A stretch of 64,000 bases of DNA. It comes from Candidatus Portnoybacteria bacterium (GTDB lineage Bacteria > Patescibacteriota > Minisyncoccia > Portnoybacterales > GWB1-42-6). Numbering within the stretch: position 1 is the first letter of the stretch; each line of letters opens with the position of its first letter. Positions 2,984-50,610 of the stretch are shown in pieces. The notes beneath the pieces were generated by a model, which was given only the letters and a program-made list of their open reading frames with translations, had not been told where the DNA came from and did not search any database. The stretch covers positions 302,620 through 366,619 of the forward strand of contig JAQTYI010000001.1 in assembly GCA_028688325.1 (NCBI GenBank), read 5' to 3'. Made by a program: the position numbers and the translations under genes.

Positions 2984-4360
2984 ATGACTAATGAGCAACT
3001 TTGGCAAACCGCCCTCGGCGAAATTGAGCTTAATATTTCACGGGCCAATTTTATAACTTGGTTCCGCGATACTTTTATCTTTAAAAACAAAGAGGGCGTC
3101 GCCACGATCGGCGTCCCCAACGGCTTCAGTAAAGAATGGCTGGAAAATAAATATAACAAGCTTATTTTGCGGGCGATAAGAAATGTCTCCAGTGATATAA
3201 AAGAACTGAGGTTTATAATTGTCGCCGCATCCTCATCTGTTTCTTCGCCAACTGAACGAATAATAAAAACACCCGGGATAAAAGGAACCCCTGTCGGACA
3301 GGCGCAATCCTTCCAAGAATTAGAGATTGACAAGGACACAAATCTCAACCCCAAATATACTTTTAGTAATTTCATCGTCGGCTCATTCAATGAGCTGGCC
3401 CAGGCCGCGGCTAAGGCCGTGGTTAACAATCCCGGCGAGGCCTATAACCCTCTTTTCATCTATGGCGGCACGGGGCTGGGCAAGACACACCTATTGCAAG
3501 CGATAGGTAACGAAGTCATTGAAAAATACAAAAAGAAAAAAAGGGTCAAATATATCAGCTCGGAAAAATTCACCTCAGAGCTCGTCAGCTCCCTGCATAA
3601 CGGCAAAATCGAGGAATTCAAAGAAAACTACCGCCAAGTCGATATCCTGATTATCGACGACATCCAGTTCTTGTCCGGTAAAGAAAAAACCCAAGAAGAA
3701 TTTTTTCATACTTTCAATTTTTTATACCAAAAAAACAAACAAGTCATCTTAAGCTCCGACCGCTCACCCAAGGCCATCGCCACACTGGAGGAACGCCTGC
3801 GTTCGCGTTTTGAGGGTGGGATGATAACCGACATCTCCCAACCCGACATGGAAACCCGTTTGGCGATCCTGAAGTGCAAGACCATTGAGAAAAAAATAGT
3901 GATTCCCGACGAAATACTCGCTTATATCGCCGCCCATGTCCAAAAGAACATCCGAGAGCTTGAAGGCGCGCTAAATCGCATCATCGCCGCCAACCACACC
4001 ATCACCAGCAATCCCGACATGGCTGTGGTGGCAAAAATACTAAACGACATCATCAACGCGCCAAAAAAATTAACCAACCATAAAAACATAATCCAAGCTG
4101 TAGCGGAATTTTATGATATCAGCGCCGCCGACCTCATCCATCGCTGCCGCCGGAAAGAAGTGGTGGGCCCCCGTCAAGTGGCAATGTATTTGATGAGGGA
4201 AGAGCTGAAAAAATCATTTCCTTTTATTGGGGAAAAATTAGGCGGGCGCGATCACACCACGGTGATGTATGCCTGCGATAAATTAACCAAAGAAGTTGAG
4301 AAAAATGAAATGCTGCAGCAGGAATTAAACCTGATAAAGGAAAAAATTTACAGTAAATAG
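2984..4360 (+). CDS. dnaA: Chromosomal replication initiator DnaA
   Basis: Walker A GTGLGKTHLLQAIGN. Sensor and arginine-finger region IIDDIQFL. C-terminal DnaA-box-binding helix-turn-helix. Confidence 0.95.
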   Translation: MTNEQLWQTALGEIELNISRANFITWFRDTFIFKNKEGVATIGVPNGFSKEWLENKYNKLILRAIRNVSSDIKELRFIIVAASSSVSSPTERIIKTPGIKGTPVGQAQSFQELEIDKDTNLNPKYTFSNFIVGSFNELAQAAAKAVVNNPGEAYNPLFIYGGTGLGKTHLLQAIGNEVIEKYKKKKRVKYISSEKFTSELVSSLHNGKIEEFKENYRQVDILIIDDIQFLSGKEKTQEEFFHTFNFLYQKNKQVILSSDRSPKAIATLEERLRSRFEGGMITDISQPDMETRLAILKCKTIEKKIVIPDEILAYIAAHVQKNIRELEGALNRIIAANHTITSNPDMAVVAKILNDIINAPKKLTNHKNIIQAVAEFYDISAADLIHRCRRKEVVGPRQVAMYLMREELKKSFPFIGEKLGGRDHTTVMYACDKLTKEVEKNEMLQQELNLIKEKIYSK

Positions 4361-4600
4361 TTAATAAGATGTTTATAAGTATGTTGATATATGTGTTGGT
4401 ATATTAATGAATAATTAATTAACAAAAACCTGATATCTTTTTTTAAAAAAAGAAGTTAATAATTATTAAATAAATAACAAGTGCTTATAAACATTCAAGG
4501 TTTATTGATTCCTTATAACCGTATTGATAAAAAAAGTTTTTCCACAAAATAATCAACACCTAATAATAACAATTTTTTTATTAATTAAGTATTTAAGAGT
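4361..4600. promoter_or_regulatory. Very AT-rich dnaA-dnaN spacer. Candidate DNA unwinding element or second oriC module
   Basis: 240 bp at more than 80% A+T with degenerate DnaA-box-like TTTTCCACA (about 4536-4544). Classic oriC placement between dnaA and dnaN. Confidence 0.45.
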
Positions 4601-5701
4601 ATGAAAGTGATTTGTTTGCAGGAAAATTTAAAATTCATTTTGAATATCACCCAAAACATCATCGGGAGGAATTTGACATTGCCAATATTGAATAATGTTT
4701 TACTCCAAACGGAAAACGGGCGGCTAAAGATTTCTTCCACCAACCTGGAAGTCGGCATTAATACCTGGGTTTCAGGAAAAGTTGAAAAAAACGGGGTAAT
4801 AACTTGTCCGGCGAAAGTTCTAGCCAACTTTGTGAATAATCTGCCCAATAAAAAAGTGGAGTTGGAAGTAAAAAATAACACCTTAACCATAAAATGCGAG
4901 AATTATAAGGCCAATCTAAATGGTTTGCCGGCCGATGATTTTCCTATTATTCCCAAAATAGAGGAGGATCCACTAGTTGAATTGAAGAGTGGTGTTTTAC
5001 GAGATGCCTTGCTTAAGGTGGTGGGTGCAGCTTCTTTATCTGAGTCCCGGCCGGAGATAACCGGCATCTTGTTTAAATTCGATAAAAGGGAATTGAAATT
5101 GGCCGCCACAGATAGTTTTCGTTTGGCGGAAAAGATAATTTTTGAAACAAACAAGAAATCAGAGGATGTTAAATCACTAATTATTCCCCAAAAGACCGTT
5201 CAAGAAATAATCAGGGCGTTGGGCGAAAAAGAAACAGATGTGAGGATTTGTCTTAGCGCGAGCCAGATCTTATTTGATGGTGGAGATATACAAGTGATTT
5301 CTAGGTTGATAGACGGCCAATATCCGGACTATCAACAGATAATCCCTAAAAACTTTTCCACTCAAGCGACGATAGATAGGTCTGAATTATTAAGTATTAT
5401 AAAAGTGGCGGCGGTTTTTAGTAATAAAACAAACAGTATTAATTTTTCATTAAACAACAACGAACTCGAGGTTTTATCGCAAGACCCAGAATTGGGAGAA
5501 AATAAATCAAAAATCGCCGCCAAGATCCAAGGTAAAAAAATTGAAGCCAATTTTAATTACCGGTATTTATTGGACGGATTAGCTAATATTGGAACAAAAC
5601 AAGTTTTTTTAGGGCTGAATTCCGATTCTAGCCCAGCCATAATTAAGCCAATAGGTGATGAATCGTATGTTTATTTAATAATGCCGATAAAGGCGAATTA
5701 A
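4601..5701 (+). CDS. dnaN: DNA polymerase III beta sliding clamp
   Basis: 366 aa with typical clamp N-terminus MKVICLQENLKFILNITQNIIGRN. Directly downstream of dnaA. Confidence 0.95.
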   Translation: MKVICLQENLKFILNITQNIIGRNLTLPILNNVLLQTENGRLKISSTNLEVGINTWVSGKVEKNGVITCPAKVLANFVNNLPNKKVELEVKNNTLTIKCENYKANLNGLPADDFPIIPKIEEDPLVELKSGVLRDALLKVVGAASLSESRPEITGILFKFDKRELKLAATDSFRLAEKIIFETNKKSEDVKSLIIPQKTVQEIIRALGEKETDVRICLSASQILFDGGDIQVISRLIDGQYPDYQQIIPKNFSTQATIDRSELLSIIKVAAVFSNKTNSINFSLNNNELEVLSQDPELGENKSKIAAKIQGKKIEANFNYRYLLDGLANIGTKQVFLGLNSDSSPAIIKPIGDESYVYLIMPIKAN

Positions 5702-30158: not shown

Positions 30159-31343
30159 ATGGATAAACAAACTTGGAATAAATTTGTTTTAGAAAATGGT
30201 GGTAGCTTTTTGCAATCCTGGGAATGGGGCGAATTTCAAGAAAACATTGGCAGGCGTGTTTTTAGGTTTTTGCATTGTCATCCCGAATTTATTTCGGGAT
30301 CTGATTCAGAGGCCCTGAAACAAGTTCAGGGCGACAAAGGGGGCTGGCGAGCTCAATTCATTGCTAACAAACTACCTGGTGTTAATAAATTTTATTGGCA
30401 TTGTCCGCGCGGGCCGGTTTTGGCCAATGGCGATGAGCAAATGGCAAATAGCCAAATACGGAAAATCATAGACGCGGTTAAAAAATCAGCGGATAAAAAA
30501 GTTATATTTTTTCGTTTTGGGCCCGAGTGGCCTCTTGATTGTCATTCCGGGCTTGACCCGGAATCCAGATCTGGATCCCGCATCGAGTGCGGGATGACAG
30601 AAAAGGATTTAAAAAATATTGGCTTCAAGCAGCTATCATACGATATCGAGCCCTCACAAACGCAAATTTTAGATATTTCAAAAACCGAAGACGAATTGTT
30701 GGCGCAGATGCACGAAAAATGGCGCTACAATATCCGCCTGGCGCAGAAGAAGGGTGTGCAGATAAAATTCACGCAGTCAGAGTGCGTGAATTTTGAGTAT
30801 TATTTTGAGGAATTTTATCGGCTGGTGAGCCAAGGCACTTCGGAGCGCAACAATATCAAGCATCATCCGAAAGAATATTATAGAAAGCAGTTGAAAATTG
30901 GCGCTAAATCTCCCCTGACCCCTCTTTACGAAAGAGGGGAAGACCCTCCTTTTGTAAAGGAGGGCGAGGGAGGATTTAGAGAAACATTATTTGTGGCCGA
31001 ATATGAAGGCAAGGTTATTGCGGCAAATATTGTCGTGATCTTTGGCAATCGCGCCACTTATCTTCACGGCGCCACAAGCAGCGAGCATCGCGAAGTTATG
31101 GCGCCGCATCTTTTGCAATGGGAGCAGATAAAATATGCCAAAGCGCAGGGCTGTTCGGAATACGATTTCTGGGGAGTTGTGAACGAACACACCTTGGACA
31201 GACGCGGCAAATCCTGGGAGGGCTTCACTCGCTTCAAAAAGGGCTTTGGCGGTAAAGAAGCGAATTACATCGGTTATTGGGATTATCCATTTGACAAGAA
31301 GTGGTATTCGTTATATAGATTAGTGCAAAAGTTTAGGAGATAA
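30159..31343 (+). CDS. FemAB-family peptidoglycan bridge aminoacyltransferase-like protein, carrying two in-frame repeat insertions
   Basis: FemAB N-terminus (WNKFVLENGGSFLQSWEWGEFQ). Family-1 insert translated as DCHSGLDPESRSGSRIECGMTEKD. Family-2 insert translated as SPLTPLYERGEDPPFVKEGEGGFRE. Confidence 0.7.
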   Translation: MDKQTWNKFVLENGGSFLQSWEWGEFQENIGRRVFRFLHCHPEFISGSDSEALKQVQGDKGGWRAQFIANKLPGVNKFYWHCPRGPVLANGDEQMANSQIRKIIDAVKKSADKKVIFFRFGPEWPLDCHSGLDPESRSGSRIECGMTEKDLKNIGFKQLSYDIEPSQTQILDISKTEDELLAQMHEKWRYNIRLAQKKGVQIKFTQSECVNFEYYFEEFYRLVSQGTSERNNIKHHPKEYYRKQLKIGAKSPLTPLYERGEDPPFVKEGEGGFRETLFVAEYEGKVIAANIVVIFGNRATYLHGATSSEHREVMAPHLLQWEQIKYAKAQGCSEYDFWGVVNEHTLDRRGKSWEGFTRFKKGFGGKEANYIGYWDYPFDKKWYSLYRLVQKFRR

Positions 31344-31353
31344 TTCGCATGGT

Positions 31354-31474
31354 TTGTCATCCCGGGCTTGACCCGGGATCCAGAGCTTGTCCCCGCGAAA
31401 GCGGGGATCCATTGGGCCTGGATTCCCGCTTCCAGCTTACCCCGCACTTGATGCGGGTCGGGAATGATAGAAGT
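31354..31474. repeat. Family-1 repeat, intergenic
   Basis: TTGTCATCCCGGGCTTGACCCGGGATCCAG ... GGATTCCCGCTTCCAG...CGGGAATGATAGAAG. Confidence 0.8.
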
Positions 31475-31510: not shown

Positions 31511-32296
31511 ATGAGTGATTTTGAAGAAAAAATTCAAGAGTTATTAAAATTAAAAGGTTTGGATTTTGTTCAGGGTCTTTTGAAGATAGAAGAAGATCGC
31601 TTTAATAAGGAATTTTTAAAGGGTTCTGTATACGAAGAAATAAATGCTGATTTTGGGCTTTTCCCTCCCTTAAAAATTTATCCAGTTTATTTTTTGGGCA
31701 ACATAGCAAGACCGGAGAATAAAAGAGTTTTTATAGGAATAAATCCTGGTTATGATAGAAGCAATTCTTTGGAACAGAAATTTTTAGAAGAAAGAGGCTG
31801 TTTTGATGGCTATTGTAATATTTTTGGAGATTTTTTAAGAAAAAAACACAAAGGGCTTTCCTCTAAATATTTTTCTAATATAGCAGGTTTTTTAAAGCGT
31901 TTTTACGAATTAGACGAAATAAATAATTGGACTTGGTTTCAGGATAATATTATAAATTTGGATTTCATTCCTTATCATTCAAAAAATGCCGCCGGTATAA
32001 GAATAAATAATATCGAGAAGTTCAGAAAAGTGTATTTTCAGATATTATTAAAATTTTTAGAACATATTAATCCGCGTGACTATATTTTTGTAAATGGATT
32101 CCCAACTTTTGAAGGATATTTCCAAAATGATATTTTTATTAAAGCTATACAATTTAAAAAGGTGGATAATTTTTGGATAGGGAATATTGGCAGATTTAAA
32201 TTTATAGGATTGCCGTTTTTAACTCAAGTATCTGGTGGCAAGGATAATTTAGTAAATAATATTCGTAGATATTTAGCAGATGAAGCAACTTCTTAA
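31511..32296 (+). CDS. Hypothetical protein with low-GC coding sequence
   Basis: 261-aa ORF, markedly more AT-rich than its neighbours. No motif recognised. Confidence 0.45.
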   Translation: MSDFEEKIQELLKLKGLDFVQGLLKIEEDRFNKEFLKGSVYEEINADFGLFPPLKIYPVYFLGNIARPENKRVFIGINPGYDRSNSLEQKFLEERGCFDGYCNIFGDFLRKKHKGLSSKYFSNIAGFLKRFYELDEINNWTWFQDNIINLDFIPYHSKNAAGIRINNIEKFRKVYFQILLKFLEHINPRDYIFVNGFPTFEGYFQNDIFIKAIQFKKVDNFWIGNIGRFKFIGLPFLTQVSGGKDNLVNNIRRYLADEATS

Positions 32297-33779
32297 AAAA
32301 CTGATTCCCGACAGGATGCTGAGCATCTATCATTTCAAATTGGCGCTTTTGGGGGCGCTGGTTTTTGGTTTCCCGAGTAGGAAATTGAGGGTTATTGGCG
32401 TGACGGGAACAAAAGGGAAGTCGACCGTGGTGATGTTGGCGGGGAAGATATTGCAGGAGAATATAACCTCACCCCAACCCTCTCCTTCAAAAGGAGAGGG
32501 GGAAGTTTTTAACCCCCCAACCCCCCTTTGCGTAAGGGGGGATGAAAACGGGGATTTTTGTGAAAGCGGGCAAGCCGAATTTGCCCCCCTTGTAAAGGGG
32601 GGCGCAGGGGGGTTAAAAAATGTCGGATGGATCTCTTCGCTCACGATAAACGACGGGAAAAATGAAACGATGAACCCCTATCATATGACGATGCCAGGCA
32701 GGTTTTTTATTCAAAAGACGCTGGCGCAGATGATAAAAAACGGCTGCGAATACGCGCTGGTTGAAGTGACCAGCGAAGGAATAAAACAGCACCGGCATCG
32801 CTTCATCAACTGGGCGGGCGCGGCGTTCACTAACCTCGCGGCTGAGCATTTGGAAGCGCACGGCGGGTTTGAAAATTACAGAAAAGCCAAAGAGAAACTA
32901 TTTGCCGCCGCGGCAAAAAATGAAGATAGTTTCGGGGTGTATAACCTGGATGATGAAAATGTCGGTGAGTTTTTGAAGTATGGGATCGCAAGAAAAATTG
33001 GATACGGAATTCTTAACCCCCCAACCCCCCTTTGCGTAAGGGGGGATGAAAACGGGGATTTTTGTGAAAGCGGGCAAGCCGAATTTATCGTAAAGGGGGG
33101 CGAAGAGGGGTTAAAGAATTTACGAATTTCCAATATTCAATTATCTGGCAGTGGCTCGGAATTTGTCATCAACGGCGTGGAATTTAAAACCAAATTCTTG
33201 GGTGAGTTCAATATTTATAACTGCGCCGCCGCCGCGGCTATCGGGCAGGTCTGCGGCGTGCCGCTAAAAGTTGCGGCGCAGGCGCTCGCAAAGATAAAAT
33301 CTATTCCGGGTCGATTGGAAATAATTGATGAGGGTCAGGATTTTACGGTCGTGGTTGATCTGGCGCACACGCCGGATTCTTTTGAACAAGTTTTCAGATT
33401 GTTCGGAGAGTTGAAGCAAAATAAAATCATCTCGGTTTTCGGCGCGGCCGGCGGCGGGCGCGATAAATGGAAGCGGCCGGAACTTGGCAGAATCGCCTCG
33501 GCTTATTCGGACCAGGTTTTTATTACCAATGAAGACCCGTATGAGGAGGACCCTCTTAAAATAGCGGATGAAATATTGGCCGGGTGCGATAAGAGTAAAA
33601 CCGACATAATCTTGGACCGCCGGCAGGCCATTGCCCGCGCCTTGTCTTTGGCGCGCAAGGGTGATATAGTTTTAATCCTCGGTAAAGGAACGGAACAAAC
33701 GATGGTTGCCAGCGATAAAAAATATGATTGGGATGACAGAAGGGTCGTTCGCGAGGAATTGAAAAAAATAGTTCATTAA
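32280..33779 (+). CDS. murE: Mur ligase family protein (MurE-like UDP-MurNAc-tripeptide synthetase) with two in-frame copies of a roughly 100-bp GC-rich repeat
   Basis: P-loop VIGVTGTKGKSTV. DLAHTPDS. C-terminal SVFGAAGGGRDKWKRPELGRIA...ITNEDPYEEDP. Both inserts translate to the identical stretch NPPTPLCVRGDENGDFCESGQAEF. Confidence 0.7.
   Translation: MKQLLKKLIPDRMLSIYHFKLALLGALVFGFPSRKLRVIGVTGTKGKSTVVMLAGKILQENITSPQPSPSKGEGEVFNPPTPLCVRGDENGDFCESGQAEFAPLVKGGAGGLKNVGWISSLTINDGKNETMNPYHMTMPGRFFIQKTLAQMIKNGCEYALVEVTSEGIKQHRHRFINWAGAAFTNLAAEHLEAHGGFENYRKAKEKLFAAAAKNEDSFGVYNLDDENVGEFLKYGIARKIGYGILNPPTPLCVRGDENGDFCESGQAEFIVKGGEEGLKNLRISNIQLSGSGSEFVINGVEFKTKFLGEFNIYNCAAAAAIGQVCGVPLKVAAQALAKIKSIPGRLEIIDEGQDFTVVVDLAHTPDSFEQVFRLFGELKQNKIISVFGAAGGGRDKWKRPELGRIASAYSDQVFITNEDPYEEDPLKIADEILAGCDKSKTDIILDRRQAIARALSLARKGDIVLILGKGTEQTMVASDKKYDWDDRRVVREELKKIVH
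32470..32630. repeat. Family-2b GC-rich repeat inside murE (copy 1)
   Basis: CCCCCCAACCCCCCTTTGCGTAAGGGGGGATGAAAACGGGGATTTTTGTGAAAGCGGGCAAGCCGAATTT... identical over about 70 nt to the copy at 33015-33115. Confidence 0.8.
33015..33115. repeat. Family-2b repeat inside murE (copy 2)
   Basis: Same sequence as copy 1. Confidence 0.8.
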
Positions 33780-33790
33780 AATAAAACCCC

Positions 33791-33941
33791 GCAGAGGGCG
33801 GAGAAACCAGGCGATGGCAGCCAAGATGGGCTCATAACCCATCTTTGACGAGGCGATGTTGGCGTTAATTCATCCGGCGCCAATTACTTTTGTATGTTAA
33901 TTCGTTTCTCGTTGCGGGTTCGATTCCCGTCCGCCCTCTGC
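33791..33941 (+). ncRNA. tRNA-like structured RNA. Canonical T-arm plus 7-bp acceptor (extendable to a 12-bp terminal helix), a CAU 'anticodon-like' hairpin, and a roughly 70-nt extra segment. Possible intron-containing or insertion-bearing tRNA(Met/Ile2-CAU), or a tRNA-like attachment site
   Basis: 5' GCAGAGGGCGGA pairs perfectly with 3' TCCGCCCTCTGC. T-arm GCGGG-TTCGATT-CCCGT. Hairpin GATGGG-CTCATAA-CCCATC. No canonical D-arm or spacing could be fitted. Confidence 0.35.
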
Positions 33942-34044
33942 TCCTAAATAACGCCTCGAGCGATTCTGCCGGGGCTTTTTATTTCCGATCTTCGCTTGGG
34001 TTTTAATTTAAATGCTTCAGTATAATAGTATACTGAAGCATTTT

Positions 34045-34083
34045 TGGGATCAATAAAAAAGCCCCGATGAGGTTCCATCGGGG
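34045..34083 (-). terminator. Intrinsic terminator downstream of the reverse transcriptase gene
   Basis: CCCCGATG-AGGTTC-CATCGGGG followed on the minus strand by a T-run. Confidence 0.6.
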
Positions 34084-34085
34084 TG

Positions 34086-35039
34086 TTAATTTTGCAGTTG
34101 TTTGTTTATTTGTTTTTTGATTTTTGGCGGGCAATCAATGTCTTGTCTTTTTTTCAAATAGCCGAGCAGAGGGGTTAAGAGCTGGTTAGATATCTTTTTC
34201 TCAATGCCCATGGCGTAGGCGATAATGCCAAAGACCTGTTTTTCGGAAACGGAATTATCCATTTTTGCCCGGCCGATCATTCCGCGAAACCGCCTTATTT
34301 TTTTAGGCGGAATTTTAGGTTTTTTATCAACGATATTTATTCCTGTAATGCGCAAGGCGCCTTTTTTTATTGAACCATAGCGGGTTTTTTCGGGATTGAT
34401 CTTGAATCCAGCTTCTTCCAGCTTCTTGGCGATAATATTCTCAAAGCTTTTTGGTATTTTGACGCTGGAACTGAAAGTCAAGTCATCCACATAACGCGAA
34501 TAGCGCAATCGATGTTCAGCCACCTTCTGGTTGCTAAAAGATAAGTCAATATTCAGCAGATTTGTGGCTCCCAGAAGAGCATTAAATATGGCCAATGAGG
34601 TTGGCGCTCCTTGCGGAAGTTGGTTGCGGAAGGTGGTTAATTTGGTTAGAATCTTGGCCAGTTGCGGCGAAGCGTTCATTATTCTGAAAAACCAGTAAAC
34701 CATTTTATCGTCAACGGTCGGATAAGCGTTCTTTATGTCGATAGTAATAAGGTATTTGCTTTGTTTGTGGACAAGGGCGTTAGTCCGAGCGGATTTTTTG
34801 GCTATTCCGCCATGCGCTTGAGACGGGATGCAAAAAGGCAATTCTTTTAACAAGATTCGCTGAATTTTTTTCAGCGGTTCTTCGGGTGCCGCAATCTCGC
34901 GCTTACTGCCGTCTGATTTTTTCTTGTACCAGACACGATAATGGCTCTTAATGTTTTGTGACAACATTAGTAATTCCGTAGTGTCGAGATCGAACATTTT
35001 AGAAAAATTCTCTAAAGAAATTTTATTTTTCTTTTTCAT
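34086..35039 (-). CDS. Reverse transcriptase, retron-type (317 aa)
   Basis: Reverse transcriptase motifs: A (ITIDIKNAYPTVD), B' (LPQGAPTSLAIFNALL), C (YSRYVDDLTFSS, the YxDD box), D (GFKINPEKT) and an ITG/VTG-like segment (LRITGINIV). Strong Shine-Dalgarno sequence AAGGAGG. Compact retron size. Confidence 0.75.
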   Translation of the reverse strand: MKKKNKISLENFSKMFDLDTTELLMLSQNIKSHYRVWYKKKSDGSKREIAAPEEPLKKIQRILLKELPFCIPSQAHGGIAKKSARTNALVHKQSKYLITIDIKNAYPTVDDKMVYWFFRIMNASPQLAKILTKLTTFRNQLPQGAPTSLAIFNALLGATNLLNIDLSFSNQKVAEHRLRYSRYVDDLTFSSSVKIPKSFENIIAKKLEEAGFKINPEKTRYGSIKKGALRITGINIVDKKPKIPPKKIRRFRGMIGRAKMDNSVSEKQVFGIIAYAMGIEKKISNQLLTPLLGYLKKRQDIDCPPKIKKQINKQLQN

Positions 35040-35045
35040 TTGTTC

Positions 35046-35294
35046 CTCCTTGATAAATGAAAAAACGCGGACGGGCTTCCATGACCCATACTGGGCATGT
35101 GAAGAGAAGCATGGTGAGGTGTCTTTTGGCCGCGATAGCGCAGGGGCTCGTCGCCGGAGCGATAGCGGGCAAAAGACATCTGGGCACGCGTATTGTTACA
35201 TACGCAGAGCTTAATGGTAAGTCAAACTTCTTTCCGCCAGATGCTGGCAGGCCGATGGCTCGCAGAGCCACCTAAGTCAAGCCCGTCCGCGTTT
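35046..35294 (-). ncRNA. Candidate retron msr/msd non-coding RNA locus bounded by perfect 16-bp inverted repeats (a1/a2)
   Basis: AAACGCGGACGGGCTT at 35063-35078 is the exact reverse complement of 35279-35294. The intervening roughly 200 nt is GC-rich with several hairpins. It ends 24 nt before the reverse transcriptase ATG. The ORFs the track places here (35023..35271, 35057..35275) look non-coding. Confidence 0.55.
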
Positions 35295-35398
35295 ATTGTT
35301 AAGGTGCTAAACAAAGATAATTGATAGTAGCTATTTTTATTAAGGAAGTCAAGAAATAAAAAACCCCGCGCTTGATGTTGATGCGCGGGGTCGAGTTT

Positions 35399-35782
35399 CT
35401 AATGCGTGTTGATTATTTCGCCGGCCATTTGCGTGGCTTCGGCGAGAAGCTTTTTGGGAATATCGTCTATCCCGAAGCCATCGCTGTTGGGCGAGGTATA
35501 GATGACTTGCGGGCCCTTGCCGTAATCGGCGAAGGTGATAACAATATCTAGCACGGAAAGGGTGGCGGATTTTTCTCGACAGGACTCCATGATAAGCCGA
35601 ATCTTTTTGTTATGGAGCCGCAGAGAAAGAATATCGCCGCCTTTTTTGTCAAATTCCCTGAACTGGCGAATGGCCTCCGGGCTTATATGGCCGGCTCCTT
35701 CGCCATCGCAATTAGGGCACCGGCCGACTCGTTGGCTGGGATACCGATAACCGCACTTGAGGCAGAACCTATCTTTGCTCAT
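35399..35782 (-). CDS. Zinc-ribbon protein with an acidic C-terminal domain, possibly TOPRIM- or NYN-like. Candidate retron-associated effector
   Basis: CLKC...CPNC zinc ribbon at the N-terminus. C-terminal IRLIMESCRE...LDIVITFADYGKG...SPNSDGFGIDDI with conserved acidic residues. Immediately upstream of the retron locus on the same strand. Confidence 0.4.
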   Translation of the reverse strand: MSKDRFCLKCGYRYPSQRVGRCPNCDGEGAGHISPEAIRQFREFDKKGGDILSLRLHNKKIRLIMESCREKSATLSVLDIVITFADYGKGPQVIYTSPNSDGFGIDDIPKKLLAEATQMAGEIINTH

Positions 35783-35909
35783 AAGACCCTCCTTGTGGGT
35801 GGTATGGGTAGCTGATAAGAACTATATCTGATAGTTATATTATATCAAAACGCTATGAATATGTCAATAGTAGCGCTAAAATACCGGAAAGTGTATAATA
35901 TATCGGTAT

Positions 35910-36221
35910 GCCAGGTAGTAGAAATTCGACAGCGATTATGTTCTATTATGTTTATATTTTAGAGAGTTTAAAGAATAAGGAATTGTATGTCGGTTACACG
36001 GGTGATTTAAACAAGAGAATAAAAGAACATAATCGCGGATTGGTTTTTTCTACAAAACCATATCTGCCTTGGCTAATTATATTTTACGAGGCCTATAGGA
36101 GCGAAAAAGACGCCAGAAGGAGAGAGGCGTATTTAAAGACCAGCCAAGGCAGCAGATTGTTAAAAAGAATGCTTAAAGAATATTTTTATAATAAAGAATA
36201 AGTCGAATTTTCACTACCTGG
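35910..36221. mobile_element. Autonomous-looking member of the MITE family: terminal inverted repeats enclosing a GIY-YIG nuclease gene
   Basis: Left repeat GCCAGGTAGTAGAAATTCGACAGCG. Right repeat GTCGAATTTTCACTACCTGG. The same repeats as the non-coding MITE copies. Confidence 0.75.
35938..36201 (+). CDS. Small GIY-YIG nuclease family protein (87 aa) carried inside the repeat-flanked element
   Basis: MFYYVYILESLKNKELYVGYTGDLNKRIKEHNRG...R...AYLKT...LLKRML. GIY...YVG and catalytic R/E/N spacing. Confidence 0.75.
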   Translation: MFYYVYILESLKNKELYVGYTGDLNKRIKEHNRGLVFSTKPYLPWLIIFYEAYRSEKDARRREAYLKTSQGSRLLKRMLKEYFYNKE

Positions 36222-36348: not shown

Positions 36349-36486
36349 TTGTCATCCCGGGCCTGACCCGGGATCCAGGCCCTGAAGCCCAACCGTCGCT
36401 AAAGCTTTGGCGAGGCAAGCAAGTTCAGGGCGACAAAAAACCTGGATTCTCCCCGCACTTGATGCGGGGCGGGAATGACAAAATGA
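36349..36486. repeat. Family-1 repeat ending inside the annotated 5' end of the next gene
   Basis: TTGTCATCCCGGGCCTGACCCGGGATCCAGG ... CCCCGCACTTGATGCGGGGCGGGAATGACAAAATGACAA. Confidence 0.8.
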
Positions 36487-50065: not shown

Positions 50066-50222
50066 ATTTGACGAAGTTTTACGGGCCGTGGCCCGTGGCG
50101 GGCTTTACGGGCTGCGCCGCGTGATCATGAGCGAAATTAATGATGTTGCCCCGTAAAATAATTTGCTGACGCAAATTACCACGGGGCGCGTTAAATCCTT
50201 CGCTTCGCTCATGATTTTACGC

Positions 50223-50610
50223 GGTGGAGACGGGGAGATTGAACTCCCGTCCAAAAAATATTCTTAAAATACATCTACAAACTTAGCCTGATTTATTTGA
50301 TGGGATCTGAAGCTGTGAATCAGGCAAAAACGTTTCAGACCCTATCCGGTAATTTTTCAATCGCATCCCCCGGAAAGGATACTATCTATTCCGAAAAGAT
50401 TACACCCGGGCTCTGCCTATCGGAAGTCGTCAGGCCGGATGGGTTTTGGGCTATTTTATTAGGCCAGAACCGGAGCATAAGAAGGCGCGAACGCATTCTT
50501 GATGCCTGTCATAAAGTTGACATTTGTTTGTTTGCTGAAAGTTTATCGAGATTTTAGCACACTCGGTTTGCGTATTTTTAAGGACATTTGATGTCGAAAC
50601 TTGCGCCCCC
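50223..50610 (-). ncRNA. ssrA: tmRNA (ssrA), standard one-piece form
   Basis: Minus-strand 5' end GGGGGCGCAAGTTTCGACA, a tRNA-like 5' domain. 3' end GGACGGGAGTTCAATCTCCCCGTCTCCACC, a T-arm plus acceptor that pairs with the 5' end. Internal tag reading frame ...NAFAPSYAPVLA followed by TAATAA. Adjacent to smpB. Confidence 0.65.

Follow-up and report, generated by a model that had tools for sequence, protein, structure and literature searches.

The locus described here raises the question of whether a reverse transcriptase (RT) gene and the structured non-coding segment upstream of it make up a retron and, if so, whether an effector gene belongs to it. The locus lies in a 64-kb stretch of DNA from a Candidatus Portnoybacteria bacterium, a member of the Candidate Phyla Radiation (CPR). 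This stretch, the window, is the whole of the DNA that was analyzed; it comprises positions 302,620 to 366,619 of the 789-kb contig JAQTYI010000001.1 (assembly GCA_028688325.1), and both strands were read. Retrons are understood as three-part systems of defense, and CPR bacteria are believed to be poor in defense systems. Related loci (L numbers below) were gathered from genome and metagenome collections and by exact-protein look-ups. An initial annotation of the sequence had placed a retron-like unit at 35046–35782, an interval that takes in the non-coding RNA (ncRNA) and a zinc-ribbon gene, whereas the RT gene itself lies outside it. Judged from its sequence, the combination of a retron RT and an msr-msd-type ncRNA is a real retron in an ultra-small Portnoybacteria genome. 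The reading we favor, and hold to be quite probable, is that of a stand-alone (orphan) retron of about 1.3 kb, with the order promoter-ncRNA-RT-terminator, which belongs to a CPR-restricted clade and has no cis-encoded partner.

The Reverse Transcriptase and Its Family

The 317-residue RT with a YxDD box and a VTG-like segment, as initially annotated, is confirmed. The open reading frame (ORF) matches Pfam RVT_1 (6.8e-16), the box is YVDD at residues 183–186, and the VTG-like segment is ITG (I231-T232-G233). An NAxxH motif is found at N87-A-L-V-H91. NAxxH between RT2 and RT3 and the VTG triplet in RT7 are signatures of retron RTs (PMC7736814). Across the 23 members of the RT family defined below, NAxxH, YVDD, and (I/V)TG are invariant or almost so, with N87, H91, T232, and G233 invariant.

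All the retron RT models of PADLOC match the protein, and no other PADLOC model does. The best match is RT_VI (6.8e-58, 194 bits, model positions 8–277 of 279), and further matches are RT_II-A (6.2e-53) and then RT_III-A. Taken over the whole 23-member family, RT_VI and RT_II-A reach nearly equal best E-values (6.8e-58 versus 1.9e-57), so these scores leave the retron type between the two. The NCBIfam model retron_St85_RT gives 1.2e-45, at a score under the model's own cutoff, and the group II maturase model TIGR04416 gives 26 bits versus a cutoff of 300. When the family profile was compared with chains of solved structure, Ec86 was the closest (1e-35, residues 8–295), followed by Kva2, Ec67, Ec78, and Ec83, and the best non-retron RTs were marginal (Drt2, 6e-7; group II maturase, 6e-6). 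The question of whether the RT clusters with the enzymes of diversity-generating retroelements (DGRs) or group II introns is answered in the retron's favor by the NCBIfam and PDB-chain comparisons. Pfam finds no extra fused domain within the 317 residues.

A search of 5.8 billion protein clusters returned an identical RT from a Candidatus Portnoybacteria metagenome-assembled genome (MAG) and 22 relatives at 47–70% identity. Outside this 23-member family, identity falls abruptly to 36% or less, and the proteins found are generic retron RTs. Hosts named for the close family all belong to the Patescibacteria, including Portnoybacteria and Saccharibacteria, and phage and plasmid records hold no close relative (identity of 38% or less). 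The family appears to be a previously undescribed, lineage-specific retron group, apparently confined to CPR bacteria. Its Saccharibacteria subclade (L001, L165, L166, L087, and L088; about 53% identity) is found 33 nt 3′ of a VTT-domain gene and 66 nt 5′ of a CNNM gene. The RT reading frame of L088 is interrupted.

The Structured RNA

The segment ahead of the RT gene is bounded by the exact 16-bp inverted repeats that were first noticed at this locus. AAACGCGGACGGGCTT (35063–35078) and AAGCCCGTCCGCGTTT (35279–35294) are perfectly complementary over 16 bp, and complementarity extends to 19 nt at 95%. The repeat exceeds shuffle expectation: when the surrounding 4 kb were shuffled 300 times, perfect inverted repeats with arms 50–400 nt apart reached at most 13 bp. 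The enclosed 232 nt have a G+C content of 57%, versus about 42% in the RT gene, and the segment folds more stably than its dinucleotide shuffles (z = −5.9 for 271 nt, z = −6.7 for the 232 nt), in agreement with its description as GC-rich and hairpin-dense. The arms of the a1/a2 stem are paired in the minimum free energy (MFE) structure of the window RNA; that is, an a1/a2-dependent fold is present. The distance from the RT-proximal arm to the ATG is 23 nt and includes the AAGGAGG of the ribosome-binding site.

Homologues of the ncRNA are found 5′ of the RT in 19 distinct Patescibacteria loci, where an inverted repeat of 14–17 bp lies at equal distance 5′ of the RT. The repeat sequences differ between loci yet stay complementary, as in TGTCCTGACAGGCTT, CATAAGGCAGGCTT, and GACACGGACAGGCTT. 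The 19 family RNAs make up alignment A2, from which RNAalifold was used to derive a consensus structure. The consensus has a closing stem of 15 pairs and two hairpins, of 8 and 7 pairs. Standard pairing is found in 97.0% of the cells of these 30 pairs, versus 33–46% when the 3′ partner is slid by 1–3 columns. Both-sided changes occur in 19 of the 30 pairs, versus 3–7 with a slid partner, and none of 500 shuffles attained the observed covariation values. The changes are distributed as follows. In the closing stem, 9 of the 15 aligned pairs have both-sided changes. In msr stem-loop 1 (helix 2), 7 of the 8 pairs have double changes, and 94% of cells are paired. In msr stem-loop 2 (helix 3), 98.5% of cells are paired, and columns 65/79 hold U-G in 18 of the 19 RNAs. 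G-U or U-G pairs occupy 45 cells in all, which on the opposite strand would be A-C mismatches. These pairs, together with the U-G found in 18 of the 19 RNAs, fix the strand of the RNA as that of the RT. Folded individually, the 19 RNAs have z values from −4.5 to −10, and the closing stem is present in all of them.

A long msd-type stem, built around a U-run/A-run core with flanks that vary, is found in 19 of 19 RNAs by single-sequence folding. The support for this stem comes from the per-sequence folds, as the MAFFT alignment is out of structural register there and the stem could not be scored by column; RNAalifold returned no pairs for it on that alignment. The msd-type stem-loop is presumed to be the template for multicopy single-stranded DNA (msDNA).

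Rfam gave no match for the window RNA or for its counterparts in eight related loci. R1, a covariance model built on the msr part, matches loci of this RT family only. It finds no ncRNA at 86 loci of other retron-like RTs, nor in the Saccharibacteria RT loci L001, L165, L166, L087, and L088. The layout initially proposed, an msr-msd RNA followed by ret, is upheld by the retron RT models and by the covarying a1/a2 stem and msr hairpins of the 19 loci.

Two further pairings were considered. A basal helix around the msd, AGAAGU/GCUUCU (35226–35231/35105–35110), stands out in the window and the AT-rich subclade but not across the Portnoybacteria-like loci; it is not claimed. Pairing of the 5′ leader with the RT ribosome-binding site was rejected (−5.6 kcal/mol, p = 0.57 versus shuffled leaders, window only).

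The Cassette and Its Genomic Contexts

The cassette has its own start and end signals (Table 1). The retron promoter begins 5 nt past the terminator of the zinc-ribbon gene and is followed by a leader of about 22 nt and then by the 5′ arm. A TTGAC..TAnnAT promoter is found at the equivalent place 5′ of the ncRNA in related loci, and the order of terminator and promoter ahead of the RNA recurs there irrespective of the upstream gene. The RT family is found in at least seven unrelated gene contexts, and no neighbor is common to all of them. The RT gene has a G+C content of about 0.42 and its flanks of about 0.50. This lower G+C content, the many insertion contexts, and the variable slot described below suggest horizontal movement of the cassette. 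No integrase is present. The direct repeats 33778–33792/35355–35369 were considered as attachment sites and set aside; they overlap terminators (U-tract and GC stem) and are uninformative.

Two of the contexts deserve a separate description. In a Patescibacteria MAG (L161, 3638–5142), the ncRNA-RT cassette lies within the ribosomal protein cluster, between rpsJ (S10) and rplC (L3). On the 386-kb contig of L082, paralogous Mur ligase genes (468–1817 and 4224–5540) flank the retron, both on the strand opposite to the RT.

Table 1. Features of the retron and its surroundings, with the gene contexts in which the RT family is found.
Feature	Coordinates or loci	Strand	Basis
Putative sigma-70-like promoter of the retron: −35 TTGACT (35352–35347), 17-nt spacer, −10 TACTAT (35329–35324)	35324–35352	minus	9 of 12 consensus matches
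Retron ncRNA (msr-msd), 232 nt, a1/a2-bounded	35063–35294	minus	fold, 19 homologues, covariation
5′ arm of closing stem, AAACGCGGACGGGCUU on the RNA	35279–35294	minus	perfect complement of 35063–35078
G directly 3′ of the 5′ arm on the RNA, candidate branching (priming) nucleotide	35278	minus	sequence
msr stem-loop 1, 8 bp, sequence variable and pairing kept	35254–35272	minus	covariation
msr stem-loop 2, CUGCCAG-CAU-CUGGCGG, sequence highly conserved	35234–35250	minus	covariation
Long msd-type stem-loop, UGUCUUUUG/CAAAAGACA base, GC-rich apex	35120–35178	minus	MFE helices
Small 3′ hairpin just 5′ of the 3′ arm	35080–35099	minus	MFE prediction only
3′ arm of closing stem, AAGCCCGUCCGCGUUU on the RNA	35063–35078	minus	complementarity, covariation
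Ribosome-binding site AAGGAGG of the RT, 5 nt 5′ of the ATG	35045–35051	minus	sequence
Retron-type RT, 317 aa	34086–35039	minus	Pfam, PADLOC, NCBIfam, PDB, motifs
Intrinsic terminator hairpin after the RT stop, then CUUUUUUAUU	34062–34083	minus	sequence
Putative zinc-ribbon gene promoter, TTGACA-17-TATAAT, full consensus	35839–35867	minus	sequence
Zinc-ribbon orphan protein, 127 aa, judged outside the retron	35399–35782	minus	CxxC...CxxC ORF
Zinc-ribbon gene terminator, hairpin and U-tract	35358–35390	minus	sequence
tRNA-like RNA, 151 nt, judged outside the retron; 3′ end faces the retron	33791–33941	plus	3′ of Mur ligase gene
Context: RNase J/small gene ... Mur ligase	window and Portnoybacteria-like loci		
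Context: S10, RT, L3	L161		
Context: MraY, RT, amidohydrolase	L002		
Context: PolB-type exonuclease, RT, PD-(D/E)XK-like gene	L003, L163, L168		
Context: UPF0102, RT, FolD	L169, L094		
Context: NYN, RT, HAD	L090		
Context: VTT, RT, CNNM	Saccharibacteria subclade		

A Retron Probably without a Cis-Encoded Partner

Across the seven or more contexts, no effector domain or gene is specifically tied to the RT. For a retron of this kind, the RT-msDNA complex is most likely the phage-sensing half of a defense whose output is encoded elsewhere in the genome; next most likely is a toxin-independent role. A more radical version of the stand-alone retron, to which we give only a minor chance, is that of a CPR-specific clade that works without any effector. 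Such a clade would have moved repeatedly into housekeeping neighborhoods of reduced episymbiont genomes, including the S10/L3 interval, would prime from adenosine in about half of its members, and would have the msDNA-RT complex as its product. That complex might then act on phage recombination or nuclease proteins as a decoy, or it might take part in a host nucleic-acid process.

Several observations weigh against the stand-alone retron as we describe it. The first concerns the junction of the closing stem, where the initial annotation had pointed to a branching G. A G is indeed present at 35278, but as a conserved feature it is weakened. The junction base, column 17 of A2, is G in 11 of the 19 loci and A in the other 8, these A-type members have no unpaired G ahead of stem-loop 1, and the closest G that is invariant is 4 nt into the closing stem. 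With A in 8 of 19 members, the assignment of G35278 as the branching nucleotide is therefore unproven. Second, the Saccharibacteria subclade (L001/L165) has the RT and no detectable ncRNA within 4 kb. Third, the search for a partner or effector covered 64 kb of the 789-kb contig, which we count against the reading. Fourth, a small gene on the same strand is always found just 5′ of the retron in the Portnoybacteria-like subclade. At five of the nine loci (the window, L171, L172, L083, and L089), this gene is a homologue of the zinc-ribbon gene, and at L082 an 87-aa ORF is partly alike, resembling the C-terminal part of the zinc-ribbon family protein P0129. Given this constant small upstream gene, a functional link specific to the lineage is conceivable, if improbable.

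The unpaired nucleotides on either side of the closing stem's inner end change together. Columns 17 and 365 of A2 (35278 and 35079) covary, with G/G in 11 loci and A/A in 8, and the change parallels the split between two subclades. The paired change may bear on the priming nucleotide and on the first templated base.

The Zinc-Ribbon Neighbor

The protein encoded by the upstream gene of the window was initially put forward as the possible effector. The retron would then be tripartite, with the zinc-ribbon protein as a toxin or nuclease restrained by RT-msDNA in a lineage-specific association. Its gene lies immediately 5′ of the retron on the same strand, and the counts just given for the Portnoybacteria-like loci, including the partial resemblance at L082, are in its favor. 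The family is also very rare, with 3 relatives among the 5.8 billion clusters and 7 among 1.84 billion representatives in a profile search. The relatives have in common an N-terminal zinc ribbon and a helix (…PxDIRxFxxLDKxGG…), and their C-terminal half varies, as is often the case in effector modules. Some relatives are merely 70–78 residues long.

Against an effector role stand the transcription signals, the distribution of the gene, and the protein itself. The gene has its own perfect promoter, and a terminator lies between it and the retron promoter. Homologues are found without a retron in the same slot, i.e., the RNase J ... Mur ligase interval, in three arrangements, as follows. L173 and L174 have the zinc-ribbon gene, a bidirectional terminator, and the Mur ligase gene; L175 has the zinc-ribbon gene, the tRNA-like RNA, and the Mur ligase gene; and in L176 and L177, an 881-aa or split DnaG-zinc-ribbon/Toprim_2 (primase-like) protein is in the retron's place. 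The retron, in turn, is found without the zinc-ribbon gene in all its other genomic contexts, of which there are at least six. Even within the Portnoybacteria-like subclade, L167 and L084 have an unrelated protein of 119–147 residues at the upstream position, and L170 has yet another, different small protein. Homology between the zinc-ribbon family and the L167/L084 proteins was considered and rejected (hhalign probability of 0.3%). Since the zinc-ribbon gene and the retron are each found without the other, they are distributed independently, and shared synteny is the best explanation of their being neighbors in the window.

The zinc-ribbon protein has no detectable nuclease or toxin fold, and it has no Pfam, PADLOC, PDB, or NCBIfam match beyond weak zinc-ribbon ones. 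The TOPRIM- or NYN-like C-terminal domain initially ascribed to it found no sequence match in these searches, and a structure model of moderate confidence likewise leaves a TOPRIM, NYN, or PIN fold unsupported. We consider it improbable that this protein is the retron's effector.

Other Readings of the RT/RNA Pair

A partner might also be hidden within the RNA. In a type VI-like retron, the transcript would be a "hybrid RNA" encoding a small toxic protein, the translation of which is de-repressed by msDNA. RT_VI is the best single hidden Markov model (HMM) for the RT, and an 82-aa, GTG-started ORF overlaps the window ncRNA, recalling the small ORF hidden in the structured transcript of type VI retrons (bioRxiv 10.1101/2025.10.22.683967). 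RT_II-A scores almost as well, however, so type VI is not singled out. The type VI order is ncRNA, small protein, helix-turn-helix (HTH) protein, and RT, whereas here the RNA ends 23 nt short of the RT start and an HTH gene is lacking. The ORFs within the RNA lack both an ATG and a ribosome-binding site and are absent in AT-rich homologues, e.g., L002, and conservation of the RNA tracks base pairing rather than reading frame. A type VI-like retron is thus very unlikely.

CPR genomes are rich in DGRs, and the RT adjoins a structured, non-coding, GC-rich segment, but the idea that this segment is a mutagenic template repeat or an intron, left by a DGR or a group II intron, is scarcely credible, as a sensitive blastn search of 35040–35320 (281 nt) against the 64-kb window gave palindromic self-matches only and no degenerate copy that could form a template/variable-repeat pair, no intron RNA family of Rfam matches, the group II maturase score is far below its cutoff, and the Drt2 and group II structures match only marginally.

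Proposed Working and Meaning

The sequence comparisons show the type of the RT, the conserved structure of the RNA and its strand, the limits of the cassette, and the absence of a conserved neighbor. For the stand-alone retron, we propose the following working, in which msDNA synthesis, the priming nucleotide, and any defense role are inferred by analogy with studied retrons. The promoter at 35352–35324 would drive a single minus-strand transcript that contains the RNA (35294–35063) and the RT (35039–34086) and ends at the hairpin 34083–34062. The RNA closes through its 16-bp a1/a2 stem and displays the two msr hairpins and the long msd hairpin. By analogy, the RT would bind the msr hairpins, and the primer would be a 2′-OH at the junction of the closing stem, either that of G35278 or that of a nearby purine. 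The msd part would then be copied into msDNA, which would stay bound to the RT. The zinc-ribbon gene would be a resident neighbor with independent transcription signals.

A well-supported retron family in CPR bacteria bears on how defense in these organisms is seen. The family is compact, with 19 homologous ncRNAs, a covariation-backed structure, a minimal two-part architecture, and very small host genomes. It offers a tractable set for the study of orphan-retron function, a question open since Mestre et al. 2020. The G/A variation at the junction allows testing of whether the branch nucleotide must be G. In addition, the small RT/ncRNA pairs (about 300 aa and about 230 nt) can be screened as msDNA producers for genome-editing tools.

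Neighboring Features of the Locus

The unit had also been described as an island beside a tRNA-like gene. The content of the slot next to this RNA does vary among relatives, but the RNA itself does not qualify as a canonical tRNA. Its closing stem of about 12 bp is combined with an 8-bp arm that ends in a CUCAUAA loop (CAU "anticodon"), a variable insert of 60–110 nt, and a canonical T-arm, GCGGG-UUCGAUU-CCCGU; across loci its length is 151–180 nt. ARAGORN and Rfam make no tRNA call for 33791–33941 in the window or for its counterparts in eight homologous loci. The genuine tmRNA of the window lies elsewhere (50222–50610). The tRNA-like RNA is kept in eight aligned loci with some compensatory changes, and a partial copy is found at the contig end of L172. 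It is absent from L173 and present in the retron-less L175–L177; as it exists there without the retron, it was rejected as a retron component.

In L175, nothing occupies the slot that runs from the zinc-ribbon gene to the 3′ end of the tRNA-like RNA. The slot holds the retron in the window (33942–35398) and in eight other loci, and in L176 and L177, it holds the DnaG-zinc-ribbon/Toprim_2 protein, 881 residues long or split, and a 116-aa gene. This suggests that the slot beside the tRNA-like RNA is an insertion hotspot.

Other repeats and a small cassette-like unit are found nearby. The Mur ligase ORF (32280–33779) contains two palindromic, GC-rich repeats of about 115 nt (32506–32621 and 33010–33119); their 77-nt core is 99% identical, and they are translated in frame as inserts (NPPTPLCVRGDENGDFCESGQAEF...). 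Palindromic miniature repeats of a second family, TGTCATCCCGGGC...GCGGGAATGACA, lie at 30539–30599, 31354–31472, and 36349–36483. One copy lies inside a FemAB-like ORF (30159–31343), one is intergenic, and one lies over the start of the RNase J-like gene. A 23-nt inverted repeat with 87% complementarity (35908–35930/36202–36224) brackets a 97-aa GIY-YIG ORF on the plus strand (35908–36201; Pfam 2.1e-16). The GIY-YIG unit resembles a small self-contained cassette and was not found in the related loci.

Comparison with Known Systems

In the literature collection searched, no paper combines "retron" with "Patescibacteria" in title or abstract, and the main text of the 2026 SPIRE retron survey makes no mention of Patescibacteria. 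The nearest systems in architecture are the stand-alone msr-msd-RT cassettes that form branches of retron RT clades 2 (the Retron-Eco5/Ec107 branch) and 11 (Mestre et al. 2020, PMC7736814); whether such orphan retrons use a trans effector or have a different function was left open (PMC7736814). Like these, the window retron has two components, encoded on one strand in the order ncRNA, RT, and no protein cluster is specifically tied to it. It differs in that its RT family is separate, with identity of 36% or less to outside proteins, and in that all its identified hosts are Patescibacteria. The RT_Ec107-like model scores 3e-40 for the window RT, versus 6.8e-58 for RT_VI, and is not among the best.

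Type VI retrons (Retron-Vpa2, Retron-Eco12, and Retron-Sen3) share with the window retron the best-scoring HMM, by a slight margin over II-A. In contrast, the small-protein toxin ORF and the HTH gene that they have between ncRNA and RT are both absent here. Retron-Eco1 (Ec86, type II-A), the best-studied retron, shares the RT fold and motifs and is the closest solved structure, with its ncRNA 5′ of the RT. The two RNAs also agree in their a1/a2 closing stem, msr hairpins, and long msd hairpin, and both have a purine where the stem opens. The differences are that Ec86 has a nucleoside deoxyribosyltransferase-like effector, a gene not found at the window locus, that sequence identity is low, and that the junction G is not conserved in the window family. 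Compared with other retrons generally, the window ncRNA is a family of its own, as model R1 is absent from the 86 other retron-like RT loci. The retron as a kind and its two-part architecture were already known; the RT clade, the ncRNA family, the host lineage, and the non-conserved junction nucleotide are new.

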